The notes: a model not told the origin generated them from the sequence alone. A DNA stretch of 64,000 bases from an uncultured Gammaproteobacteria bacterium (GCA_964345045.1 CAYFPM010000001.1:467784-531783); one strand, 5' to 3'. Counted from the stretch's first letter, positions 8,975 through 63,415 are shown. Made by a program: numbers and translations.

Positions 8975-10387
8975 TTATCCAATACTTCCTTCCATCTCCA
9001 GCTCAATTAATTTATTAAGCTCGAGAGCATATTCTAATGGCAAAGCTTTTACTACAGGCTCTATAAAGCCCGCTACCACCATTTGCATAGCTTGTTCCTG
9101 ACTCATTCCCCTACTCATAAGGTAAAAAATTTCATCATCCCCAATCTTACCAACTCTGGCTTCGTGAGCAATGTCTACCAGGTTATTATCAATCTTCATA
9201 TATGGGTGCGTGTTCGAAACTGACTCTGGATCCATGAGCAGAGCATCACACTCTACGTTCACAGCCGATCTTTCGGCTTTTTTTAAAACCTTTACTAGTC
9301 CACGATAAGTAGAAATTCCCCCACCAGCCGAGATAGACTTGGCAGCTATGGTTGATTTGGTTTCTGGAGCAGCATGAATTACTTTGCTACCAGTATCTTG
9401 ATTCTGGCCTGGCCCTGCAAAAGCTACCCCCAAACTATCGCTCCTAGCGCCCCGACCACGGAGGACCGAACAAGGATAAAGCATAGTCACTCCACTACCC
9501 ATATTGCCATTGATCCACTCTACTACTCCATTCTCGTCAACAATGGCTCGCTTGGTATTTAGGTTATAAGTGTTTTTACTCCAGTTTTCAATTGAATAAT
9601 AACGAACCCGAGCATTTTTCTTTACAAAAATTTCTACTCCACCAGCATGCAAAGAATTTTTGGTGTATCTGGGGGCGCTACAACCTTCTATATACTGTAC
9701 ATCACTGCCTTCGTCGGCAATTATTAAGGTATGTTCAAACTGGCCACCAGACTCGGCATTCATACGGAAATAAGCTTGGAGGGGCAAATCAACCTTTACT
9801 CCTTTTGGTACATAGATAAAAGTTCCACCCGACCAAACTGCGGCATGCAGCATTATAAATTTGTGATCATTGATCGGGATGCACTGCGTCATGAAGTATT
9901 CTTTGATTAGCTCAGGATATTTCTCTACGGCCACATCCATGTTTTCAAAAATAACGCCCTTTTCTTCCAAATCTTTTTTAATATTGTGGTAGACCACATC
10001 GCTGTCGTACTGGGCACCTACGCCAGCCAGAGCTGTTTTTTCGGCCTCTGGAATGCCCAGTCTATCAAAAGTATCTTTGATATCTTCCGGCACATCTTCC
10101 CAGCTAGTTGCTTCTTCTGTTCCGGGGCGAATGAAATAAACGATTTCATCTAAATTAAGATTTGATAAATCCGGCCCCCAAGTTGGTAGCGAAGTTTCCT
10201 TATAAAGTTCCAAAGCTTTCAATCTTTTTTCCAGCATCCATGCTGGTTCATTCTTTTGTTTTGAAATTTCTTTAACCACCTCTTCGCTTACACCAGGTTT
10301 GGATTTATAAGAAGATCGATCGATGTTGGCATCGTCGTATAGAGTACGGGAAGGTGAAAATGGGAGTTGGGTTTTGGTATTAGTCAT
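8975..10387 (-). CDS. sufB: Fe-S cluster assembly protein SufB
   Basis: 470 aa with full-length similarity to SufB (e.g. ...SGGTFIYVPKGVKV..., HEARVGKIGDDEIFYLMSRGMSQEQA). Confidence 0.95.
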   Translation of the reverse strand: MTNTKTQLPFSPSRTLYDDANIDRSSYKSKPGVSEEVVKEISKQKNEPAWMLEKRLKALELYKETSLPTWGPDLSNLNLDEIVYFIRPGTEEATSWEDVPEDIKDTFDRLGIPEAEKTALAGVGAQYDSDVVYHNIKKDLEEKGVIFENMDVAVEKYPELIKEYFMTQCIPINDHKFIMLHAAVWSGGTFIYVPKGVKVDLPLQAYFRMNAESGGQFEHTLIIADEGSDVQYIEGCSAPRYTKNSLHAGGVEIFVKKNARVRYYSIENWSKNTYNLNTKRAIVDENGVVEWINGNMGSGVTMLYPCSVLRGRGARSDSLGVAFAGPGQNQDTGSKVIHAAPETKSTIAAKSISAGGGISTYRGLVKVLKKAERSAVNVECDALLMDPESVSNTHPYMKIDNNLVDIAHEARVGKIGDDEIFYLMSRGMSQEQAMQMVVAGFIEPVVKALPLEYALELNKLIELEMEGSIG

Positions 10388-10839: not shown

Positions 10840-12084
10840 TTATCTTTTCTGGGTAGTTTTTGTTTTTGTCAGATTTATGACTTCTTTTATCTTCTTTACA
10901 GTATAATCAATCTCTTTTTTTGTATTACTTTTTCCCAAAGTAAATCTAATGCTCTGCTTAGCCTCTTTTTCACTCAAACCACAAGCAAGTAAAACATGAG
11001 AAACTTCGTCACTGTCTGTAGTACAAGCCGAACCACTAGAACACATTATCCCAAATTCACTAAGTCGCAGGATTAATTCTTCCGCATCAATATTATCAAA
11101 AACAACATTCAAATTGTTTGGCAAACGATTCTCTCCAAATTCAGGTCCATTCAATTTGACACTCTTAATTTCCCGCTTAAGCTCTTTCCAAAAGTAATTT
11201 CTCAATTCCTCAATTTTACTACTTATTGTTAATTGTTTACTGTTTAGTGCAATTGCTTTGGTCAATCCTATAATTTCTGGCACGTTTTCCGTTCCGGGAC
11301 GTAAACCAAATTCTTGCCCACCGCCGTAGTTCAAAGATTCCAACTCTACTCCCCTTCTTTTGTACAAAACGCCTACGCCTTTTGGTGCATAAATTTTGCT
11401 ACCGTTTATAGACATCAAATCAACATGAGTTTTCTCAACGTTCAAATTTAGATAGTTTGTAGCTTGGCAAGCATCTGTATGAAAAAATGGAAAAGCTGAT
11501 TTATTCTTTTTTCTAAACTTTAAAACTTCCTTCCCAATATCATTAATTGGTTGAATACTTCCAATTTCATTGTTCGCAAACATAATTGAAACCAAAACAG
11601 TTTCTGGTCGAAGAGCTTTTTTAAAATCATTTATATTTATTAATCCATTTTTATCAACATTGAGATAAGTAACTTCCCAACCTTCTTTTTCCAATTTTTT
11701 AATGGGTTCAAGCACGGCATGATGTTCTATCTTAGTGGTAATAATATGTTTTTTTGCTTTTTTGCCACCCTTCGGGTGATCAGCCGAAGGCTGATTTTCT
11801 AGTTTTTTTGTTAACCCTAATATAGCTAGATTACAAGATTCTGTACCACCGCTAGTAAAAATAATATTATCCGGGTGGGCAAAAAATTCTTTTGCCACTG
11901 TTTCTCTGGCTTCTCTGAGTTTTTTCTTGATTTCTGTTGCCCCTTGGTACAAAGCTGAGGGGTTAAAGTAAAGTTCGGAAAAATACGGTTTCATGGCAGC
12001 CAAAACCTGACTATCTATAGGAGTAGTCGCTGCGTGATCCAAATAAACTTGTTTTTTGGTATTTTTTGGCTTAAATAAGCGCAT
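10840..12084 (-). CDS. cysteine desulfurase, NifS/IscS-like (class V aminotransferase); carries an in-frame palindromic-element insertion
   Basis: 414 aa; YLDHAATTP N-terminus, PLP-Lys motif SINGSKIYAPKGVGVLY, active-site Cys loop SSGSACTTDS. An extra loop LENQPSADHPKGGKKA is encoded by the repeat at 11765-11802. Confidence 0.85.
   Translation of the reverse strand: MRLFKPKNTKKQVYLDHAATTPIDSQVLAAMKPYFSELYFNPSALYQGATEIKKKLREARETVAKEFFAHPDNIIFTSGGTESCNLAILGLTKKLENQPSADHPKGGKKAKKHIITTKIEHHAVLEPIKKLEKEGWEVTYLNVDKNGLININDFKKALRPETVLVSIMFANNEIGSIQPINDIGKEVLKFRKKNKSAFPFFHTDACQATNYLNLNVEKTHVDLMSINGSKIYAPKGVGVLYKRRGVELESLNYGGGQEFGLRPGTENVPEIIGLTKAIALNSKQLTISSKIEELRNYFWKELKREIKSVKLNGPEFGENRLPNNLNVVFDNIDAEELILRLSEFGIMCSSGSACTTDSDEVSHVLLACGLSEKEAKQSIRFTLGKSNTKKEIDYTVKKIKEVINLTKTKTTQKR
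11765..11802. repeat. 38-bp double-hairpin palindromic element, copy 1 (in frame inside the cysteine desulfurase gene)
   Basis: CCACCCTTCGGGTGATCAGCCGAAGGCTGATTTTCTAG contains two adjacent stem-loops (CACCC-TTCG-GGTG and CAGCC-GAAG-GCTG). It is the perfect reverse complement of the copy at 12542-12579. Confidence 0.8.
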
Positions 12085-12147
12085 AAAGTGTTTACATTTG
12101 TAAGGACTATGATATACTTTTTAGACCAATTTGTCAATCCTATAAAT

Positions 12148-12873
12148 ATGCAAAATTTAGCTAAATATACAGTAAAAGTCCTAGAAAAAACGCCTCTTAC
12201 AGCCGATGTGTATCATTTGAAATTGGAAAAACCAGTTGATTTTGGGTATCAGGCAGGCCAATTTATCCAATGGATTTTGAATAAAGAAGATAAAGAAATA
12301 TTTCGTTCATACTCACTTTGTTCTACTCCTCATGCCCCCACTCTAGATCTTTGTATAAAAATTGTCCCTGGTGGAGCCGCTTCGGAAGAAGTCAAAAAAT
12401 TACAATTAGGAGATGTTATTACAATCCAAGGCCCAAGAGGAAGATTTGTGCAAACTGATACTGAAAAAAATCAATTCTACATTGCTACAGGAGTTGGTCT
12501 TGCGCCAATTTTGGGAATTATCAAAGATGAGCTAGAAAATCAGCCTTCGGCTGATCACCCGAAGGGTGGTAAAAAAACAAAACAAAATATTTATTTACTA
12601 TTTGGTGTAAGAAGTGAAAAAGATGTTTTTTGGAAAAATGAATTAGAACAATTGAGTAAAGATTTTTCAAACTTTAATTTTGATATCACTCTGTCTCAAC
12701 CGGATTCAACTGATTGGGATGGGCTATCTGGTAGAGTTACCAATCATTTGGAAGAGCACTCTGCCGAACACAAATTTTATTTGTGTGGCAGTGCGAATAT
12801 GGTAAAAGATGTAAGAAAAATTTTGTTGGAAAAAAAAGTGGAGCCAGGAGACATCCACTTTGAAATATTTTAG
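12148..12873 (+). CDS. ferredoxin-NADP reductase-like FAD/NAD(P)-binding oxidoreductase; carries an in-frame palindromic-element insertion
   Basis: ORF 12088..12873; the likely start is MQNLAKY. FAD motif RSYSL (R-x-Y-S), GGAASEE, NAD motif ATGVGLAPI. The inserted loop LENQPSADHPKGGKKT is encoded by the repeat at 12542-12579. Confidence 0.6.
   Translation: MQNLAKYTVKVLEKTPLTADVYHLKLEKPVDFGYQAGQFIQWILNKEDKEIFRSYSLCSTPHAPTLDLCIKIVPGGAASEEVKKLQLGDVITIQGPRGRFVQTDTEKNQFYIATGVGLAPILGIIKDELENQPSADHPKGGKKTKQNIYLLFGVRSEKDVFWKNELEQLSKDFSNFNFDITLSQPDSTDWDGLSGRVTNHLEEHSAEHKFYLCGSANMVKDVRKILLEKKVEPGDIHFEIF
12542..12579. repeat. 38-bp double-hairpin palindromic element, copy 2 (in frame inside the FNR-like gene)
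   Basis: CTAGAAAATCAGCCTTCGGCTGATCACCCGAAGGGTGG is identical to the reverse complement of 11765-11802. The two copies form a perfect inverted repeat 739 bp apart spanning the divergent gene starts. Confidence 0.8.
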
Positions 12874-12878
12874 TTTGT

Positions 12879-13454
12879 CTAAAACGGCAAAGTCATATTT
12901 ACACCACTAGCAGTTTGTTGCTCGGAAACTGGTGGTGGTTCAAAATCCACGGCAATAGGTTTCAAATCTCCTGTTAGCGAACTATAGTAAAGCATCTTAT
13001 TTTTTTTGCCGTATTCGTAGACTTCTTTGGTTACTTTTACATCTTGTTCACAGTATTTTTTAATTTCATCAATTTTTCCTTCTTCGTACCATTTTACAGC
13101 TTGCAAACCATCGGCACTTTTGGATATTTGGAGAGTAGCTTTGGCAATATCATCTAGTTTGTATCTGCTACCAGACATTTCTTTTATCACTTTTAACAAA
13201 TCCAAATGAGGAATATTTGTCAATTCTCCAGTGTAATATCTATCCAAAATTGGAAGATCAAAACTTTCACTATTGTAACCAATTAGTCTTTCGGCTCTTT
13301 CCAAAATAGGCCAAAGTTGACCAAGTTCATGTTCGTCAAAAGATGTATATCTATCATGTTCATACTCATAAATAGATACTACGGTTACCTTTAGATTGGC
13401 TTGATTTCTAATGTCTCCAAAAGTTTCTATATCAAAAACTATTTCTCTAGACAT
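12879..13454 (-). CDS. DEDD-family 3'-5' exonuclease (DnaQ/RNase D-like)
   Basis: ORF to 13493; likely start MSREIVFDIETFG (Exo I DxE). GYNSESFDLPIL (Exo II) and YCEQDVKVT (Exo III, Y-x3-D) motifs are present. Confidence 0.6.
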   Translation of the reverse strand: MSREIVFDIETFGDIRNQANLKVTVVSIYEYEHDRYTSFDEHELGQLWPILERAERLIGYNSESFDLPILDRYYTGELTNIPHLDLLKVIKEMSGSRYKLDDIAKATLQISKSADGLQAVKWYEEGKIDEIKKYCEQDVKVTKEVYEYGKKNKMLYYSSLTGDLKPIAVDFEPPPVSEQQTASGVNMTLPF

Positions 13455-13599
13455 AATTATTTTTTTACAAATACAAAAAGAAGTGTAACACACTTCTTTT
13501 GAAAATTTAAGTTACCTTTCATTTCTTTTCAAAAGATAAAAAGAAAGGGAAGGTGACAAGTAGTTTGTTTAGCTAGGTGTAGGGGCAGTTGGTCGTGTT

Positions 13600-15207
13600 C
13601 TACTTTACGCCATGCATGCCGCGGTTCAAAAGTGGAACCAGCAGAAGCAAGAGAAAAGCAGCCGCCAAAGCAACGTATCCCAACGGTCCAAAGACCGATG
13701 AGAAGTTCGCCAGGCTATCGAACGAAGACAGCAATTCTGGTGAGTAATTTTGATTTTCACTCAAAATTCCCGCCATTTTTGCTGCCTCCCCTGCTACCAG
13801 ATTGGTTTCTCCAGACCCGGCGGTAAGCTTGGCAATCACTCCGCCAGCATGGTGCGCCATAGCCACCGACAAGAACCAAGCTCCCATGACAGTTCCGCCC
13901 ATCTCCTTGGGGGTGAGCTTGGTAACGAGCGACAGACCAATTGGCGAAAGGCAAAGTTCTCCGGTGGTGTGCAACAGATACCCTACGAGCAAGAAGATCA
14001 TGGGAATGACTGCCGCTTGTTTCACAACCGTGTCCGTTCCCTCGGTCACACTGATATCGGCAACCGAAACAAACCGAACTGACCATGCCAAAACCAGGAA
14101 ACCCAGCCCAAGCTGAGCCAGCCCCAACACAAACTTGGTGGGGGCGGATGGTGGCCAGCGGCTCTTGGCCAACCACTTCCACAGTTTGTCGAAAGGAGTT
14201 GCCAGAAGCAGAATCAGTGCGGGGTTCACAGATTGGAACCATGCTGTGGGGACTTCGAATCCGGCGATCGTTCTGTTCACGTTGGAATTGGTGAACAAAT
14301 TGATCGAAGATCCAGCCTGCTCGAAAAAGGCAAAAAAGATCATGGTGAAGACGAAGAGCGTCAAGACCACGAAGAGTCTATCCCTCACGATTTTCTCACT
14401 ACGAAGGGCTTTCACGAAGATGTAGAGCAACACCAGAATGCAGAAGGGAGTGAGGATATTTCCCATCAGCTCGTAATTCTTCATGAGCCAGGCGAAAAGA
14501 ACCACGCTCAAGAAAGACAGGATGTAGATGGAGTTTTCTGTGCTCACCCCGGGCAGAAGGTTCTTTTCGAGTTTCTGCCTATCGGGCGGATCCCCATTCG
14601 GACCAAGTTTCCCCTGCCCTAGGCCAAAGGTGATCAACCCGATTAGCATACCAACTCCGGCGATTCCAAATCCGTAGGACCAGCCAAATTTGGCTCCGAC
14701 CCAGCCACACAAGAGACCCGAGATTACTGCTCCCAGGTTGATCCCCATGTAGAAGATGGTGAACCCACCATCCCTTCGAGCATCGTTCTCTCGGTAGAGG
14801 CCGCCAACCATATTTGAAATGTTCGGCTTGAACATGCCATTGCCAACGATCAAGAAGGCCAAGGCAATGTAGAGGAAGGTTTCGGTTTCGATGGCCATCA
14901 CGAAGTGACCAATAGCCATGAGAATCGCCCCGAGCAGGACAGTCTTCTTGAAGCCAAGGTATAGATCCGCGATCCGGCCTCCGATGAAGGGCGTGGCGTA
15001 CACCAGAGCTCCGTAGGCGGCGTAAATACCGTAGCTCTTGGCCTTGGCCGCCTCTGTACCCATCTCGTAGAAGAGCGTGCTGGTGAGATAGAGTACGAGC
15101 AAAGCTCTCATGCCGTAGAAGCTAAAGCGCTCCCACATTTCGGTCATGAAGAGCATGAAGAGCTCCGGTGGGTGCTTTTCTTTGGTTGTGATTTCTTCAG
15201 TCGTCAA
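13600..15207 (-). CDS. proton-dependent oligopeptide transporter (POT/PTR2 family, DtpT-like)
   Basis: 535 aa; signature EMWERFSFYGMRALLVLYL (ExxERFxYYG), 12-14 TM helices. The whole gene is about 50-55% GC in a roughly 33% GC background, which is why both strands show many overlapping spurious ORFs. Confidence 0.85.
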   Translation of the reverse strand: MTTEEITTKEKHPPELFMLFMTEMWERFSFYGMRALLVLYLTSTLFYEMGTEAAKAKSYGIYAAYGALVYATPFIGGRIADLYLGFKKTVLLGAILMAIGHFVMAIETETFLYIALAFLIVGNGMFKPNISNMVGGLYRENDARRDGGFTIFYMGINLGAVISGLLCGWVGAKFGWSYGFGIAGVGMLIGLITFGLGQGKLGPNGDPPDRQKLEKNLLPGVSTENSIYILSFLSVVLFAWLMKNYELMGNILTPFCILVLLYIFVKALRSEKIVRDRLFVVLTLFVFTMIFFAFFEQAGSSINLFTNSNVNRTIAGFEVPTAWFQSVNPALILLLATPFDKLWKWLAKSRWPPSAPTKFVLGLAQLGLGFLVLAWSVRFVSVADISVTEGTDTVVKQAAVIPMIFLLVGYLLHTTGELCLSPIGLSLVTKLTPKEMGGTVMGAWFLSVAMAHHAGGVIAKLTAGSGETNLVAGEAAKMAGILSENQNYSPELLSSFDSLANFSSVFGPLGYVALAAAFLLLLLVPLLNRGMHGVK

Positions 15208-15263
15208 GGTTGTCCCCTTCTGTCTGCGAGCGATCCACTCTTTGTTTGTTTTTTCTAGCTAGT

Positions 15264-15317
15264 ACTAGAGGATCGCCAAAATAGATATAAAGCATATTTA
15301 CTTTGAAGATCCTCTAG
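15264..15317. promoter_or_regulatory. 11-bp inverted repeat (ACTAGAGGATC ... GATCCTCTAGT) in the 5' region of the POT transporter gene
   Basis: Perfect 11-bp arms separated by 32 nt, 57-110 nt upstream of the transporter start codon; a candidate operator or attenuator structure. Confidence 0.3.
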
Positions 15318-15438
15318 TTATTTACTACTTGTCAGGAACTCTCCTTAATAATAAATAAAAAGAGTAATATATTACCCTTTTTATTATCAAAAGCAGTTTA
15401 CTGATTAATTTTGTTTTGGTCAAATCTGCTAACTTAAG

Positions 15439-15792
15439 TTAAACTGCTTTTTTGAAACTAACCTTGAAATTAGGTTCGTACTGGTTGCCGTATTCGTCTT
15501 CTACTTCTACAGTTTCCCCTTTCATTAGCGTTGTCATGGCAATATCTGTCAAAACTTCCATATCGCTAGCTATATCAATTTTCAAATCTTCAAGTTGAGT
15601 TAACTCACTAGAAAATTGTTCTTTTATTGTTAGTTCTATTTGTTTTTTCTTTTCTTTCAAATTTTTTAATTTGTCGGTAATGTCTTGATACTCCATAGAT
15701 CCGGCCAGAGCATCTTTGTAAGCAGTCTTTAGGTCTTTTTGTTTCTTTTTGGATTCTTGGATTCTACTAAAAATTTCTTGGATTGATTGCAT
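15439..15792 (-). CDS. hypothetical coiled-coil protein
   Basis: 117 aa, highly charged with heptad-like K/E-rich segments; no recognisable catalytic motif. A hairpin plus T-run lies downstream at about 15362-15390. Confidence 0.4.
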   Translation of the reverse strand: MQSIQEIFSRIQESKKKQKDLKTAYKDALAGSMEYQDITDKLKNLKEKKKQIELTIKEQFSSELTQLEDLKIDIASDMEVLTDIAMTTLMKGETVEVEDEYGNQYEPNFKVSFKKAV

Positions 15793-15845
15793 GTTATTTT
15801 TTTAAAAATAAGTTTGAACATTATAGCACAAACTTATTTTGTCTA

Positions 15846-16403
15846 CTACTCCCCTTCAATTAGGGATATTATTTCACTTTCTCTTGTGTCTTGGCTGGAA
15901 ATATTTTGTATATAGCCATTTTTATCTATATAAATATGGGTATTGGTAAATCGAATACCATATAGATTGGATACTTGACCTTTGTCCAAAGCAATTGGAA
16001 ATTCTATATCGTTGGAATTAACAAATTTTTCTATAGTCCCAATATTTTCACGTAAATTTATTCCAATTATTTCTACATCATTTTTATATTTTTGATAAAA
16101 CTTATTTAATTTTGGCATATCCCTTTGGCAATTGTGGCACCAAGAAGCCCAAAAATCCAATATAACCGGTTTTTGGCCACGAAAGCTAGACAAGGTCACA
16201 GTGCCCCCATCCAAAGTTGACAGGGTGAAATCTGGAGCTAATTCTATATCATTGTTGTGACTGTTATCAGTTTTTAAAATAGAATTGGAATCTGCAGAAA
16301 AATTATTTATTCCTCCCCTACTTTCAATAGATTTAAAAAGTAAAAAACCCAAACCAACTGCAAAAATCATACCATAAACCAACGGCTTTTTGTTTTTAAT
16401 CAT
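15846..16403 (-). CDS. TlpA/ResA-like periplasmic thiol-disulfide oxidoreductase (thioredoxin fold)
   Basis: N-terminal membrane anchor; active site WASWCHNCQRDMP (W-C-x-x-C). Confidence 0.75.
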   Translation of the reverse strand: MIKNKKPLVYGMIFAVGLGFLLFKSIESRGGINNFSADSNSILKTDNSHNNDIELAPDFTLSTLDGGTVTLSSFRGQKPVILDFWASWCHNCQRDMPKLNKFYQKYKNDVEIIGINLRENIGTIEKFVNSNDIEFPIALDKGQVSNLYGIRFTNTHIYIDKNGYIQNISSQDTRESEIISLIEGE

Positions 16404-16408
16404 ATTTT

Positions 16409-17173
16409 TTATAAGTAATCGAGGAGTGCCTCGTATCTAATAAAATTAAATAATTTGTAAGAATACGCCAACCACACATTCATACTATCTGTCACCAACA
16501 AAATTCCTAAGAAAAGCAAAAATAATCCACCAATAAAAGAAATTATATTAAGATATTTTGTTAATTTTTTAATATATTGAGTTGCATGGCCTACTCCTAA
16601 AGCAATTATTAAAAATGGAATAGCCAAACCAAGTGAAAAAACAAACAATAAGAAAGTACCTTCTAGGATGGTCCCCGATGTAGAAGCCAGCAAAAGAATC
16701 GTTCCCAAAATAGGCCCTACACAAGGAGTCCAGCCTGCCGCAAAAGTCATCCCAAACAGAAAAGAACTAGAAGGTTTGCCTGGAGTTAGTGAATTAGCAA
16801 ATTGTAATTTTTTTTCTCGATTTAAAAAATTAAAAAATGGTAATTTAAAAACGTGCATTAAATAAAGACCAAAAAATATTACGAAAATTCCACCAATTCT
16901 ACTAATCCAAATTCTGTATTGAGCCAAGGCTGATCCTGCCAAACCAAAAATTGTACCCAGTAATATAAATACCAAACTAAAACCAATTACATATAACAAA
17001 CCATTTAAAAGTATTTTCCTTTTGGCTTGTTTTAGTTTTTCTGGATTTTTTAGATCAGTTACAGACACACCACTAATAAAGGCCAAGTACCCAGGTATCA
17101 GAGGTAGGGTGCAAGGTGCCAAAAAAGTAATTATGCCGGCAATAAAAGCTGGTATTATAAGAGATATGTCCAT
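16409..17173 (-). CDS. ccdA: cytochrome c-type biogenesis / thiol-disulfide transporter CcdA (DsbD transmembrane-domain family)
   Basis: 254 aa, about 6 TM helices. Conserved FLAPCTLPLIPGY in TM1 and a second Cys in AAGWTPCVGP match CcdA. Confidence 0.8.
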   Translation of the reverse strand: MDISLIIPAFIAGIITFLAPCTLPLIPGYLAFISGVSVTDLKNPEKLKQAKRKILLNGLLYVIGFSLVFILLGTIFGLAGSALAQYRIWISRIGGIFVIFFGLYLMHVFKLPFFNFLNREKKLQFANSLTPGKPSSSFLFGMTFAAGWTPCVGPILGTILLLASTSGTILEGTFLLFVFSLGLAIPFLIIALGVGHATQYIKKLTKYLNIISFIGGLFLLFLGILLVTDSMNVWLAYSYKLFNFIRYEALLDYL

Positions 17174-25428: not shown

Positions 25429-25499
25429 TCGGGGGTCGTCTAATGGTAGGACTCCAGGTTTTGGTCCTGGCTATCGGGGTTCGAATCCCTGCCCCCGAG
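25429..25499 (+). tRNA. tRNA-Gln(UUG)
   Basis: Hand-folded cloverleaf: acceptor TCGGGGG/CCCCCGA (U1-A72), D arm GTCT-AATGGTA-GGAC, anticodon stem CCAGG/CCTGG with loop TTTTGGT (anticodon TTG), T arm CGGGG-TTCGAAT-CCCTG, discriminator G. Confidence 0.7.
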
Positions 25500-61145: not shown

Positions 61146-61293
61146 TGAAAAGTATAAATACAATTATCCACCTTCTCTCCCCTATCTATCCCCCACTCTT
61201 GCTGACAAGCAAAAACTAACTTGTTAAAATATATAAAAATAATTCAAACCTTCGGGTTTGATTTTAATTCAAAATAAAAATCCAAACAAAAAT

Positions 61294-62001
61294 ATGAACG
61301 CTCTCTCAGATATCCTTTCGAATAACGACGATATATTTCCACAACAGTCTGATGTTACTGAACAATCCTCAGTGAACAATGATATTGAATTGGAAACAAA
61401 CAAAGATAACTTCAACAATGGAACAATGGAACAATCGGACAATGAGAAATCAGAAGCAAACCTCGAGTCAACACACCACTCCCCGTCTAATCCAGACCTG
61501 CAACAACTAAAAACCATAATCTACTCTATGCAAGATCAGCTCTCTAGTATGCTCCGAATGATAAATGGTGAAGAGATCAAAAAACATGATCTAGCCACCG
61601 AAGGCAACAGCGAACTAATGCCCACTGGTGAGCAAATTGTAGAAGGAGTTTTCAATGGCGAAAAAATGATTGGCCCAGATGGCAAGGAATACTCTATCCC
61701 CCCAAACTATGCTAGCAAGTCTAAGCTAGTAGAGGGAGACATGATGAAGCTAACTATTACCAATCGTGGTCAGTTTATTTACAAATCTATTGCTCCTATA
61801 GAAAGAAAACGTCTAAAAGGAGAATTGGTTCATGATCCTGTCACCGGACAATGGAGCATTCTGGCCGATGGCAAAACCTATAAGACACTTACAGCCTCTG
61901 TCACCTATTTTAGGGGCAAAGCTGGAGACGAAGTAGTATTTTTTGTTCCAGAGACAGGAAACAGTGAATGGGGGGCGGTTGAGAATATTGTTGGTAAATA
62001 A
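61294..62001 (+). CDS. hypothetical protein with disordered N/S/E-rich N-terminus
   Basis: ORF from 61258; likely start MNALSD; no assignable motif. Confidence 0.35.
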   Translation: MNALSDILSNNDDIFPQQSDVTEQSSVNNDIELETNKDNFNNGTMEQSDNEKSEANLESTHHSPSNPDLQQLKTIIYSMQDQLSSMLRMINGEEIKKHDLATEGNSELMPTGEQIVEGVFNGEKMIGPDGKEYSIPPNYASKSKLVEGDMMKLTITNRGQFIYKSIAPIERKRLKGELVHDPVTGQWSILADGKTYKTLTASVTYFRGKAGDEVVFFVPETGNSEWGAVENIVGK

Positions 62002-62100
62002 GTAATTTTATAAAAGTAAAGAAAAAAAGGCATCTTGACAAAGATGTCTTTTTGGTTTAATTTAATATACTGCTTTATAGCAGTAGGAGGAAACAAAAGC

Positions 62101-62625
62101 GTGAAAACGATCTTTCGAATTACATTGATGATGCTCTTGCTTCTGGCCGCATGCAAAGAGGACAACACTCGCTGCAGCGGAAGGTTCCAAAACAGTAACA
62201 GAACGAAGACGTTCAATACCAACGTTGATCGTTTCATGAAACTGGTACTACAGGAGAACCCGGAGAGACAAATCGCTGTAGGTTTGCACAATGAGAACAA
62301 ATCTATCGAACGATTTGCCCACGGCCGCCACTTCCCAGATGGCAATGGGTACACGATTTTTCCAGACGAGGAGCCCTGGACGCACCTCATGTTCCATGAG
62401 TGCATCGAGGGGAAATGGAAATATTTTGGCGAAGTAGAACTACCTCGCCAGCCAATAATTCCCGATTCTCCACCCAAAACCCTGAAATTCGACCGTATTT
62501 CTACAAGAAAGGCAGAAAAAGACGGCCTCATCAACTGGCTTGCTCGAAAGCCAAGCTACCTCAAAGAAAAACCTCTCCTAGGTGGACAGGTAACGAGGTA
62601 TGTCGTAAAAAAGCCCGACTACTAG
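62101..62625 (+). CDS. putative lipoprotein (GC-rich gene)
   Basis: Alternative GTG start gives VKTIFRITLMMLLLLAACKED with lipobox LLAAC. About 50% GC; terminator at 62716-62746. Confidence 0.4.
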   Translation: MKTIFRITLMMLLLLAACKEDNTRCSGRFQNSNRTKTFNTNVDRFMKLVLQENPERQIAVGLHNENKSIERFAHGRHFPDGNGYTIFPDEEPWTHLMFHECIEGKWKYFGEVELPRQPIIPDSPPKTLKFDRISTRKAEKDGLINWLARKPSYLKEKPLLGGQVTRYVVKKPDY

Positions 62626-62715
62626 GTTCACTAGCCTACTGGCTAGTAATATAAGTAACCACCCTGTCGGCTCCACTCCAAACAGCAGCAAAAAATGATG
62701 CTTTTTGAAATAAAC

Positions 62716-62746
62716 AAAACCCACTATTGCAATAGTGGGTTTTGTT
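62716..62746 (+). terminator. rho-independent terminator (20-bp perfect palindrome)
   Basis: AAAACCCACTATTGCAATAGTGGGTTTTGTT. Confidence 0.7.
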
Positions 62747-62917
62747 ATTGACAAATCTACAAAAACGTGGTATTCTTAGACGTTCTTGCCTACCAGGCAG
62801 AACCACTGCTGGGGAGCAGTGAGCAACGCAATCGGCGTAGCTAAAATCATGCAGGCGGCTTTTAAAATGCCCACCTGATATGTGCCCCACGCGCCCTCAA
62901 CCTCTAAGGAGGCTCGT

Positions 62918-63217
62918 ATGGCATACCCCGACAAGATCAAATATTCACGAGAGTTCAAGACAGCAGTGCAGTCACTCCGCCGATGTGACAACAAAGCAGA
63001 AATGCTGAGGCTGTTGAAAGAAGGCTCCCCCTATCTAGGAAGGCATCTATCTACGCTGGCACAGAATACTATTGAGCCAGCAAGAATCCTAGAACTGCTT
63101 GATTCTGACGATACAGAGACGCTTCGAGAAGAAGCTCAACTGATTGCAGACTACCAGGCAGCGTACTCCATGTGGAGCAAAATCATAGACGCCCACACTG
63201 GCAACTGCAAGGCCTAA
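62918..63217 (+). CDS. hypothetical protein (GC-rich gene)
   Basis: ORF from 62882; likely start MAYPDKIKY, preceded by a strong SD AAGGAGG 6 nt upstream; 99 aa. Confidence 0.4.
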   Translation: MAYPDKIKYSREFKTAVQSLRRCDNKAEMLRLLKEGSPYLGRHLSTLAQNTIEPARILELLDSDDTETLREEAQLIADYQAAYSMWSKIIDAHTGNCKA

Positions 63218-63415
63218 TTGCTTATTATAATTGGTAGTAGGGTATGAGAAGGCAAGTAAAATCGTGTGCTAGTGGATGGCAACATCCCAGAGCACCGTGT
63301 AAGCCCTTCTCCCCAGAAAAAAGTTACTTACACAACAGCTAAGTGCCTTTTACCTGGAATTACAAAGAAAAAAACCGACTTACTATGTAAGTCGGTTTTT
63401 TAGACTCAAAGTTTA

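Follow-up and report, generated by a model that had tools for sequence, protein, structure and literature searches.

A GC-rich POT-family peptide transporter gene in an AT-rich Magasanikbacteria genome, probably gained by single-gene horizontal transfer

How does a GC-rich gene for a membrane transporter come to lie among AT-rich neighbours? The question is raised by a 64,000-nucleotide stretch of DNA (GCA_964345045.1 CAYFPM010000001.1:467784-531783, hereafter the window), recorded as belonging to an uncultured Gammaproteobacteria bacterium, in which an intact gene of the proton-dependent oligopeptide transporter (POT/PTR2) family occupies positions 13600-15207 of the minus strand. The original prediction for this locus regarded the gene as a probable recent horizontal acquisition. 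Our analyses lead us to assign a probability of about 85% to a genuine single-gene horizontal acquisition by a bacterium of the Candidatus Magasanikbacteria, a lineage of the Patescibacteria or candidate phyla radiation (CPR), from an unsampled donor outside the CPR with a GC content of ~50-55%.

Maximum-likelihood two-state segmentation of positions 12800-16000 delimited a compositionally foreign block of 1,669 bp at 13572-15240 (no strand assigned), with a GC content of 0.526 inside and 0.311 outside, in close agreement with the borders first proposed (13560-15240) and with the abrupt switch in composition claimed at both gene boundaries. The GC profile and the tetranucleotide scores support the same block. 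GC in 300-bp windows climbs from 0.30-0.34 to 0.52-0.55 over approximately 13500-15300 and then falls again, the window as a whole has a GC content of 0.359, and every other 1-kb bin in it is at or below 0.45. The transporter gene itself has a GC content of 0.524 and a GC content at third codon positions (GC3) of 0.655, versus 0.21-0.37 in the remaining real genes of the window, and the only open reading frames (ORFs) with a higher GC3 are found in the unannotated 62-63 kb region or overlap longer genes. Both the tetranucleotide distance of 13601-15200 (z = +7.1) and the likelihood of the transporter's synonymous codons under the host codon table (z = -5.99) are the most extreme in the window, in the kind of comparison of GC, tetranucleotides and codon usage that had been proposed for this locus. 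The overlapping spurious ORFs mentioned in the original prediction are also present, five of them, of 96-161 amino acids and on both strands, lying over the transporter gene within 13750-14622.

The transporter ORF begins with a TTG codon at 15207 and ends with a TAG stop at 13600-13602, which gives a protein of 535 amino acids recognized by Pfam, by TIGR00924 and by structure matches. The gene is on record in a 621-kb NCBI contig, and the public gene call (P0001) starts at an ATG at 15156 and gives 518 amino acids. We prefer the 535-residue reading because the 17 residues ahead of the public ATG align with the N-termini of homologues, M1, P13 and L16 being nearly invariant, and because a Shine-Dalgarno-like AGAAGGGG (15214-15221, minus strand), read from the sequence and situated within the GC-rich block 6 nt upstream of the TTG codon, precedes this start and is the putative ribosome-binding site of the transporter. 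An exact look-up of the 535-residue protein returned no record, since public gene calls take the ATG start.

The protein matches Pfam PTR2 (PF00854) over residues 88-464 with 241.9 bits (cut-off 27, E = 1.5e-71) and the NCBIfam profile TIGR00924, 'oligopeptide:H+ symporter', over profile positions 7-474 of 475 with 363.3 bits (cut-off 130.2, E = 2.3e-108). Bacterial POT transporters have an MFS fold of 12 core helices and two additional ones. For this protein a crude hydropathy scan yielded merged and overlapping hydrophobic segments, and residues 11-459 align continuously with solved 14-helix POT transporters (E = 4e-79 to 1e-59), the best solved relative being YePEPT (7q0l, E = 3.9e-79). Scores for the DtpA, DtpB and DtpD equivalogs are 270, 256 and 251 bits, against cut-offs of 728, 856 and 623, respectively, and because they fall so far under these cut-offs the transporter is a member of the POT family (TIGR00924 subfamily) that is orthologous to none of the named E. 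coli permeases. Thus, the earlier description of a complete DtpT-like POT transporter holds as regards completeness, given the full-length TIGR00924 match, and the label 'DtpT-like' does not, given the equivalog scores.

Residue conservation was assessed in an alignment of 67 sequences, comprising the transporter and 66 homologues. The signature of the first transmembrane helix (TM1) reads E23-M-W-E26-R27-F28-S-F30-Y31-G32, in which E23, E26, R27, F28, Y31 and G32 are invariant; at position 30 at least 90% of the 67 sequences, the transporter among them, have Phe instead of Tyr, so that the signature announced as ExxERFxYYG is indeed present and is correctly written ExxERFxFYG. K127 (in FKPNIS), E296/Q297 (in FFEQAGSS) and E417 (in TGELCLSP) also lie in invariant columns and align with YePEPT. 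Structural studies of PepTSt and PepTSo established that the ExxER residues couple the proton, and the peptide-binding site of POT proteins is formed by a conserved Lys in TM4, Glu/Gln in TM7 and Glu in TM10. From published POT structures we take E23, E26, R27, K127, E296/Q297 and E417 to be the proton-coupling and peptide-binding residues of this protein, which keeps all catalytic residues of proton-coupled peptide symporters. The transporter most likely imports di- and tripeptides at the expense of the proton gradient, its function and expression being predictions. Members of its subclade have one more hydrophobic segment near the C-terminus (about residues 509-527).

The genes on either side of the block reveal the lineage of the host. 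Downstream of the transporter lies a gene for a 191-residue RNase H-like 3'-5' exonuclease (12879-13454, minus strand; Pfam RNase_H_2 and DNA_pol_A_exo1), and upstream a gene for a 117-residue conserved Magasanikbacteria protein (15439-15792, minus strand), which has homologues in relatives and gave no Pfam or NCBIfam match. Homologues of the exonuclease are 70-81% identical, and nearly every one with a lineage name is assigned to Candidatus Magasanikbacteria or Patescibacteria; judged on these proteins, the host belongs to the Candidatus Magasanikbacteria (Patescibacteria/CPR). Dozens of public records of metagenome-assembled genomes (MAGs) titled 'uncultured Gammaproteobacteria bacterium' (L003, L004 and others) have the Magasanikbacteria type of gene order around exonuclease genes 64-76% identical to that of the window, and the taxonomy in such titles is apparently a placeholder or an error.

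Synteny was examined in 80 species-representative loci around the exonuclease, searched with the neighbouring proteins of the window. Within 8 kb of the corresponding site, none of the 80 has a POT gene. A homologue of the 117-residue protein (50-74% identical) is encoded in 51 of them, on the strand of the exonuclease and upstream of it; the gap between the two genes is 7-92 bp in 27 of these 51 loci, and 7-25 bp in 20 of the 27. A glutaredoxin gene (76-79 amino acids) is located in the gap of about ten loci, and a few others hold larger, unrelated insertions. The nearest relative examined (L178, 81% exonuclease identity) has the order 117-residue gene, glutaredoxin, exonuclease. In the window the slot measures 1,984 bp and is occupied by the transporter, which may have replaced the small glutaredoxin gene found there in some relatives; no glutaredoxin remnant was detected in the flanks or anywhere in the window.

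Could the gene be native, vertically inherited, and GC-rich on account of the amino-acid composition of a membrane protein or of selection on expression? A high content of Gly, Ala and Leu in membrane proteins can push up GC at the first and second codon positions (GC1 and GC2) to some extent, and the transporter has a GC2 of 0.40, close to the top of the host range. However, the excess resides mainly at synonymous third positions (GC3 of 0.655 versus ~0.26), and other membrane proteins of the window, such as DsbD (16409-17173), have a GC3 of 0.24. As a control for composition we used 84 homologous POT loci, in which gene GC tracks flank GC, with a gene-minus-flank difference of 0.007 +/- 0.042, compared with +0.169 for the transporter here. 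POT homologues 58-61% identical to the transporter have 35-40% GC in low-GC contigs, and homologous genes in low-GC organisms range from 31 to 40% GC. Since low-GC organisms encode POT genes at low GC, protein composition does not force the high GC of the transporter. The gene is also absent from the site in the 80 relatives, and the GC3, synteny and homologue tests already refute the idea of a native gene. A metagenome scan for closer relatives returned at least 600 stretches, mostly 40-50% identical, which served only as a composition control.

A single locus among the 84 exceeds the window in its gene-minus-flank difference (+0.256). It is a contig (L125, Ga0123335_1046279) with a POT gene at about 1272-2837 that is 41% identical to the transporter and has 58% GC between short flanks of 33% GC, and either a separate transfer into a genome rich in AT or a chimeric assembly may account for it.

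An abrupt switch in composition at both ends is also what would be expected if a fragment from a higher-GC organism had been mis-joined into a Magasanikbacteria contig, and in lower-coverage runs several contigs do end inside the transporter gene (at 14668/14671, 14063, 13794 and 15135), which fits the loss of coverage often seen in GC-atypical DNA. Against such a chimera, both junctions are base-for-base the same in 3-4 runs and two assemblers. An ENA MEGAHIT contig of run ERR2281803 matches the window over 21.5 kb at 100% identity. The junction between exonuclease and transporter is 100% identical in MEGAHIT contigs of ERR2281801, ERR2281802 and ERR2281803 and in a Logan contig of ERR2281802, and MEGAHIT contigs of ERR2281800, ERR2281801, ERR2281802 and ERR2281803, as well as a Logan contig of ERR2281803, show 100% identity across the junction of the 117-residue gene with the transporter; the ERR2281800 contig has one single-nucleotide polymorphism, away from the junction. 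No contig was found that joins the two host genes directly, and in a database of 5.8 billion proteins the gene had no copy on another contig. Moreover, the block consists of exactly one complete gene plus its ribosome-binding site, so that two precise mis-joins would be needed, and beyond it, on either side, the conserved order of host genes continues. Because the junctions recur across runs and assemblers, the insert is one gene and the host order resumes, a mis-join is very unlikely.

In a search of the same protein database, in which names were assessed for the best 120 matches, the closest POT homologues were 55-65% identical. The best non-self match (P0002, 65% identical) is on a 2-kb contig with flanks of 68% GC; the matches after it are ~60% identical, and the named ones are assigned to Bradymonadia, Myxococcota, Sandaracinus and Polyangiales, with Bacteroidota further out. 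No Patescibacteria name occurs among these 120, whereas the exonuclease beside the gene has its 70-81% identical matches in Magasanikbacteria, so that the comparison of proteins proposed for finding the donor lineage places transporter and flank in different lineages. Neither the homologues nor the codon usage of the gene matches the host, and its GC exceeds what its protein would impose; homologues and codon usage like those of the host lineage would have spoken against the original prediction, and each of the refuting tests named with it, as far as it could be run, favours transfer. In a neighbour-joining tree the transporter is sister to P0002 inside a clade of sequences of the Myxococcota/Bradymonadia type.

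An alternative is that the gene came longer ago from a Myxococcota-like donor of high GC (62-70%) and has since moved part of the way towards the composition of its AT-rich host; it would then be no recent arrival from a donor of intermediate GC. Gene GC is 0.61-0.62 and GC3 0.86-0.93 in the three nearest high-GC homologues, with the window gene intermediate; the nearest homologue is only 65% identical, and the transporter branch is longer than that of its sister. However, ongoing amelioration should leave GC1 and GC2 too high for the GC3 reached, and both are as expected for a POT gene with a GC3 of 0.655 (z = -0.86 for GC1 and -0.20 for GC2, n = 84). This agreement among the codon positions gives no indication of decay from an ancestor of very high GC. 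In addition, an equally close homologue (L177, 61% identical) is situated in a contig of 37% GC, indicating that the clade is not uniformly high in GC. When flank GC was regressed on gene GC3, the predicted native context of the transporter had ~53% GC. We consider the older transfer unlikely, and an unsampled donor of intermediate GC is the simplest reading.

We therefore favour the acquisition of one gene from such a donor. According to this proposal a Candidatus Magasanikbacteria genome would have gained one complete POT-family gene with its own ribosome-binding site, on ~1.7 kb of DNA that entered the short spacer between the conserved 117-residue gene and the exonuclease gene. The donor would be an unsampled, non-CPR organism of ~50-55% GC, whose transporter belongs to a clade that is mostly Myxococcota or Bradymonadia where named. 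Mobile-element machinery was apparently not brought along, and most likely free DNA would have been taken up and then inserted by illegitimate or micro-homology recombination. As to the original claim of a recent horizontal acquisition, transfer is borne out by composition, empty sites and homologues, and 'recent' is only loosely bounded, because the composition has not been ameliorated and yet no close donor has been sampled.

Several observations weigh against this proposal. The tree carries no support values, and the longer branch of the transporter could reflect relaxed constraint; with a nearest homologue at only 65% identity, direction and timing are drawn from composition and synteny alone. 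The absence of POT genes was established within 8 kb in 80 loci, and distant POT genes elsewhere in Magasanikbacteria are possible. No integrase, transposase or insertion sequence remnant was detected among the ORFs of the 1,984-bp slot (13455-15438), and there is no tRNA gene within ~10 kb, the nearest being at 25429. The only repeat flanking the block, described below, is weak (16/22, empirical p ~0.02). With respect to expression, a scan of the region for sigma-70 promoters gave matches no more numerous than in shuffled sequence, and the sole sigma-70-like match upstream of the gene precedes a hairpin.

Other vehicles and targets were examined for this insertion. A plasmid vector was rejected, the best plasmid-borne relative being 46% identical, and so was a tRNA or structured RNA as insertion target, given the distance to the nearest tRNA gene and the lack of any Rfam family in the region. 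The locus does not qualify as a mobile genomic island or an integron cassette.

Two sequence features at the edges of the block deserve consideration as traces of the insertion. The first is an imperfect direct repeat matching at 16 of 22 positions, with its left copy at 13564-13585 (plus strand), straddling the left composition border, and its right copy at 15250-15271 (plus strand), 10 bp outside the right border. Only 1 of 300 mononucleotide shuffles contained a repeat as good; since 2.3-2.6% of real 80-bp genome windows do equally well, we treat it as a weak lead for the insertion mechanism. The second, which overlaps the right copy of the repeat, is a 55-bp imperfect palindrome at 15264-15318 (no strand assigned), just outside the GC-rich block and 57 nt upstream of the start codon, with 25-nt arms (15264-15288 and 15294-15318) that are 84% complementary around a 5-nt centre and contain perfect 11-nt arms ACTAGAGGATC. 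An 11-bp inverted repeat at 15264-15317 had been reported upstream of the gene; it exists and is part of this longer structure, whose arms reach 15318. The minus strand of 15200-15400 folds at -57.4 kcal/mol (z = -6.0), the palindrome being the main hairpin, and we regard it as a candidate operator, 5' untranslated region hairpin or junction debris. As a repeated element it was rejected: in the window ACTAGAGGATC occurs only as its own two arms (0.07 expected by chance), in related loci it gave 7 scattered single matches in 1.12 Mb, and paired copies were absent from all 80.

Two further hairpins flank the gene. An AT-rich perfect hairpin at 15354-15385 (no strand assigned), with 16-nt arms 94% complementary and a U-rich tail on the minus strand, is placed downstream of the 117-residue host gene and is probably its terminator, judging by its form and position. 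Thus, after the 117-residue gene, the minus strand carries in order this hairpin (15385-15354), the palindrome (15318-15264), and the GC-rich block with AGAAGGGG and the TTG codon. At the other end, a terminator-like hairpin of 11 pairs followed by a T run (13476-13500, minus strand) is located between the transporter stop and the exonuclease start.

The slot itself looks recurrently variable. In two loci of Magasanikbacteria/Parcubacteria (L073:6550-7050 and L076:4750-5250) it contains, between the 117-residue gene and the glutaredoxin/exonuclease genes, a homologous GC-rich element of ~400 bp with near-identical blocks, which has 53-57% GC in loci of 38-39% GC and gave no Pfam or Rfam match. 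Other relatives have in the slot an IrrE-like peptidase with a NUDIX-like ORF (the latter judged by its sequence alone), an AcrB pump, or BipA with an ABC exporter. A more specific proposal builds on this variability: the transporter would have come from the host or prey partner of an episymbiotic CPR bacterium, a relative of Myxococcota/Bradymonadia with intermediate GC, and the palindrome and border repeats would mark integrase-independent capture at a recurrently variable slot. We consider this elaboration quite unlikely; if true, the transporter would be a molecular clue to a host-symbiont pairing.

With regard to the biology of the recipient, biosynthetic capacity is minimal in the CPR/Patescibacteria, which depend on their surroundings or on a host for amino acids. 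The imported peptides would be a source of amino acids for a cell that can synthesize very little itself, and the acquired cargo is thus an uptake system plausibly useful to an auxotroph. The case would illustrate how a streamlined genome adds uptake functions gene by gene, without mobile-element machinery, and the clade of the donor could offer a clue to ecological partners. With its sharp borders, 80 empty sites and junctions confirmed across runs, this well-controlled case could also serve as a reference example.

Elsewhere in the window, a second, milder GC-rich stretch at 62100-63300 (GC 0.46-0.53) contains overlapping ORFs on both strands; the ORF at 61905-62534 has a codon-usage z of -4.4, and the tetranucleotide z of the region is +2.6. 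The three ORFs scanned there (61258-62001, 62035-62625 and 62882-63217, all on the plus strand) gave no Pfam match, and an Rfam search of the stretch found no family at gathering score; it may be another foreign segment or a structured RNA. The SufB gene (8975-10387) is a mild outlier (GC 0.42, GC3 0.37, codon z = -1.55), and because Magasanikbacteria have orthologues 67-84% identical at the syntenic position, we take it for a probable native gene under strong conservation and not a foreign one.

An inverted repeat with copies of 60-64 bp, at 11740-11802 and 12532-12595 (92-93% identical), lies in frame within two unrelated, divergent neighbours, a cysteine desulfurase gene (10840-12084, minus strand) and an FNR-like oxidoreductase gene (12088-12873, plus strand). 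Both copies encode ENQPSADHPKGGKK, and two neighbouring hairpins are formed by the core, CACCC-TTC-GGGTG / ATCAGCC-GAA-GGCTGAT. For each gene, the orthologues from about 12 relatives have a gap of ~8-15 residues exactly at the repeat (10 in most FNR orthologues), and several metagenome contigs end at or inside the copy at 12532-12595. This repeat resembles the Rickettsia palindromic elements, which insert into coding genes.

How, then, does the transporter locus compare with known systems? Like the characterized POT/PTR2 symporters (TC 2.A.17; YePEPT of Yersinia enterocolitica, 7q0l/4w6v; GkPOT, 4ikv; DtpA/DtpB/DtpD; PepTSt, 4aps), the transporter aligns over its full length (residues 11-459) and has ExxER in TM1, K127 in FKPNIS, E296/Q297 in FFEQ and E417 in TGELCLSP. 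Unlike DtpA, DtpB and DtpD, it scores 251-270 bits against equivalog cut-offs of 623-856, and it differs from all these examples in residing in a CPR genome and in the extra C-terminal segment of its subclade. As for the transfer, we found no paper linking Magasanikbacteria with POT transporters or oligopeptide transport, and none mentioning PRJEB17505. Horizontally acquired genes and genomic islands have been surveyed in Patescibacteria groundwater MAGs (mSystems 2025, PMC12455944), and the transfers examined there include a transporter gene, for an ABC transporter; the word 'peptide' appears once in the main text of that survey, in a passage on ABC-type antimicrobial-peptide transport, and the cargo here is a POT transporter. 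The locus resembles those cases in being a gene of atypical composition and non-CPR affinity, with a transport function, in a streamlined CPR genome, and differs from them in that a single gene of ~1.7 kb without mobility genes is involved and that the evidence comes from empty sites in 80 relatives and not from an automated caller of horizontal gene transfer. Sharp composition borders, an intergenic insertion and short repeats with a palindrome at one edge recall tRNA-linked integrase islands and integron cassettes; unlike these, the locus has its nearest tRNA gene ~10 kb away, has no integrase, transposase or attC-like site, and is flanked by a repeat of only 16/22 (p ~0.02). In summary, the transporter is an ordinary POT protein and its arrival an ordinary single-gene horizontal transfer, rather than a new kind of system or mechanism.

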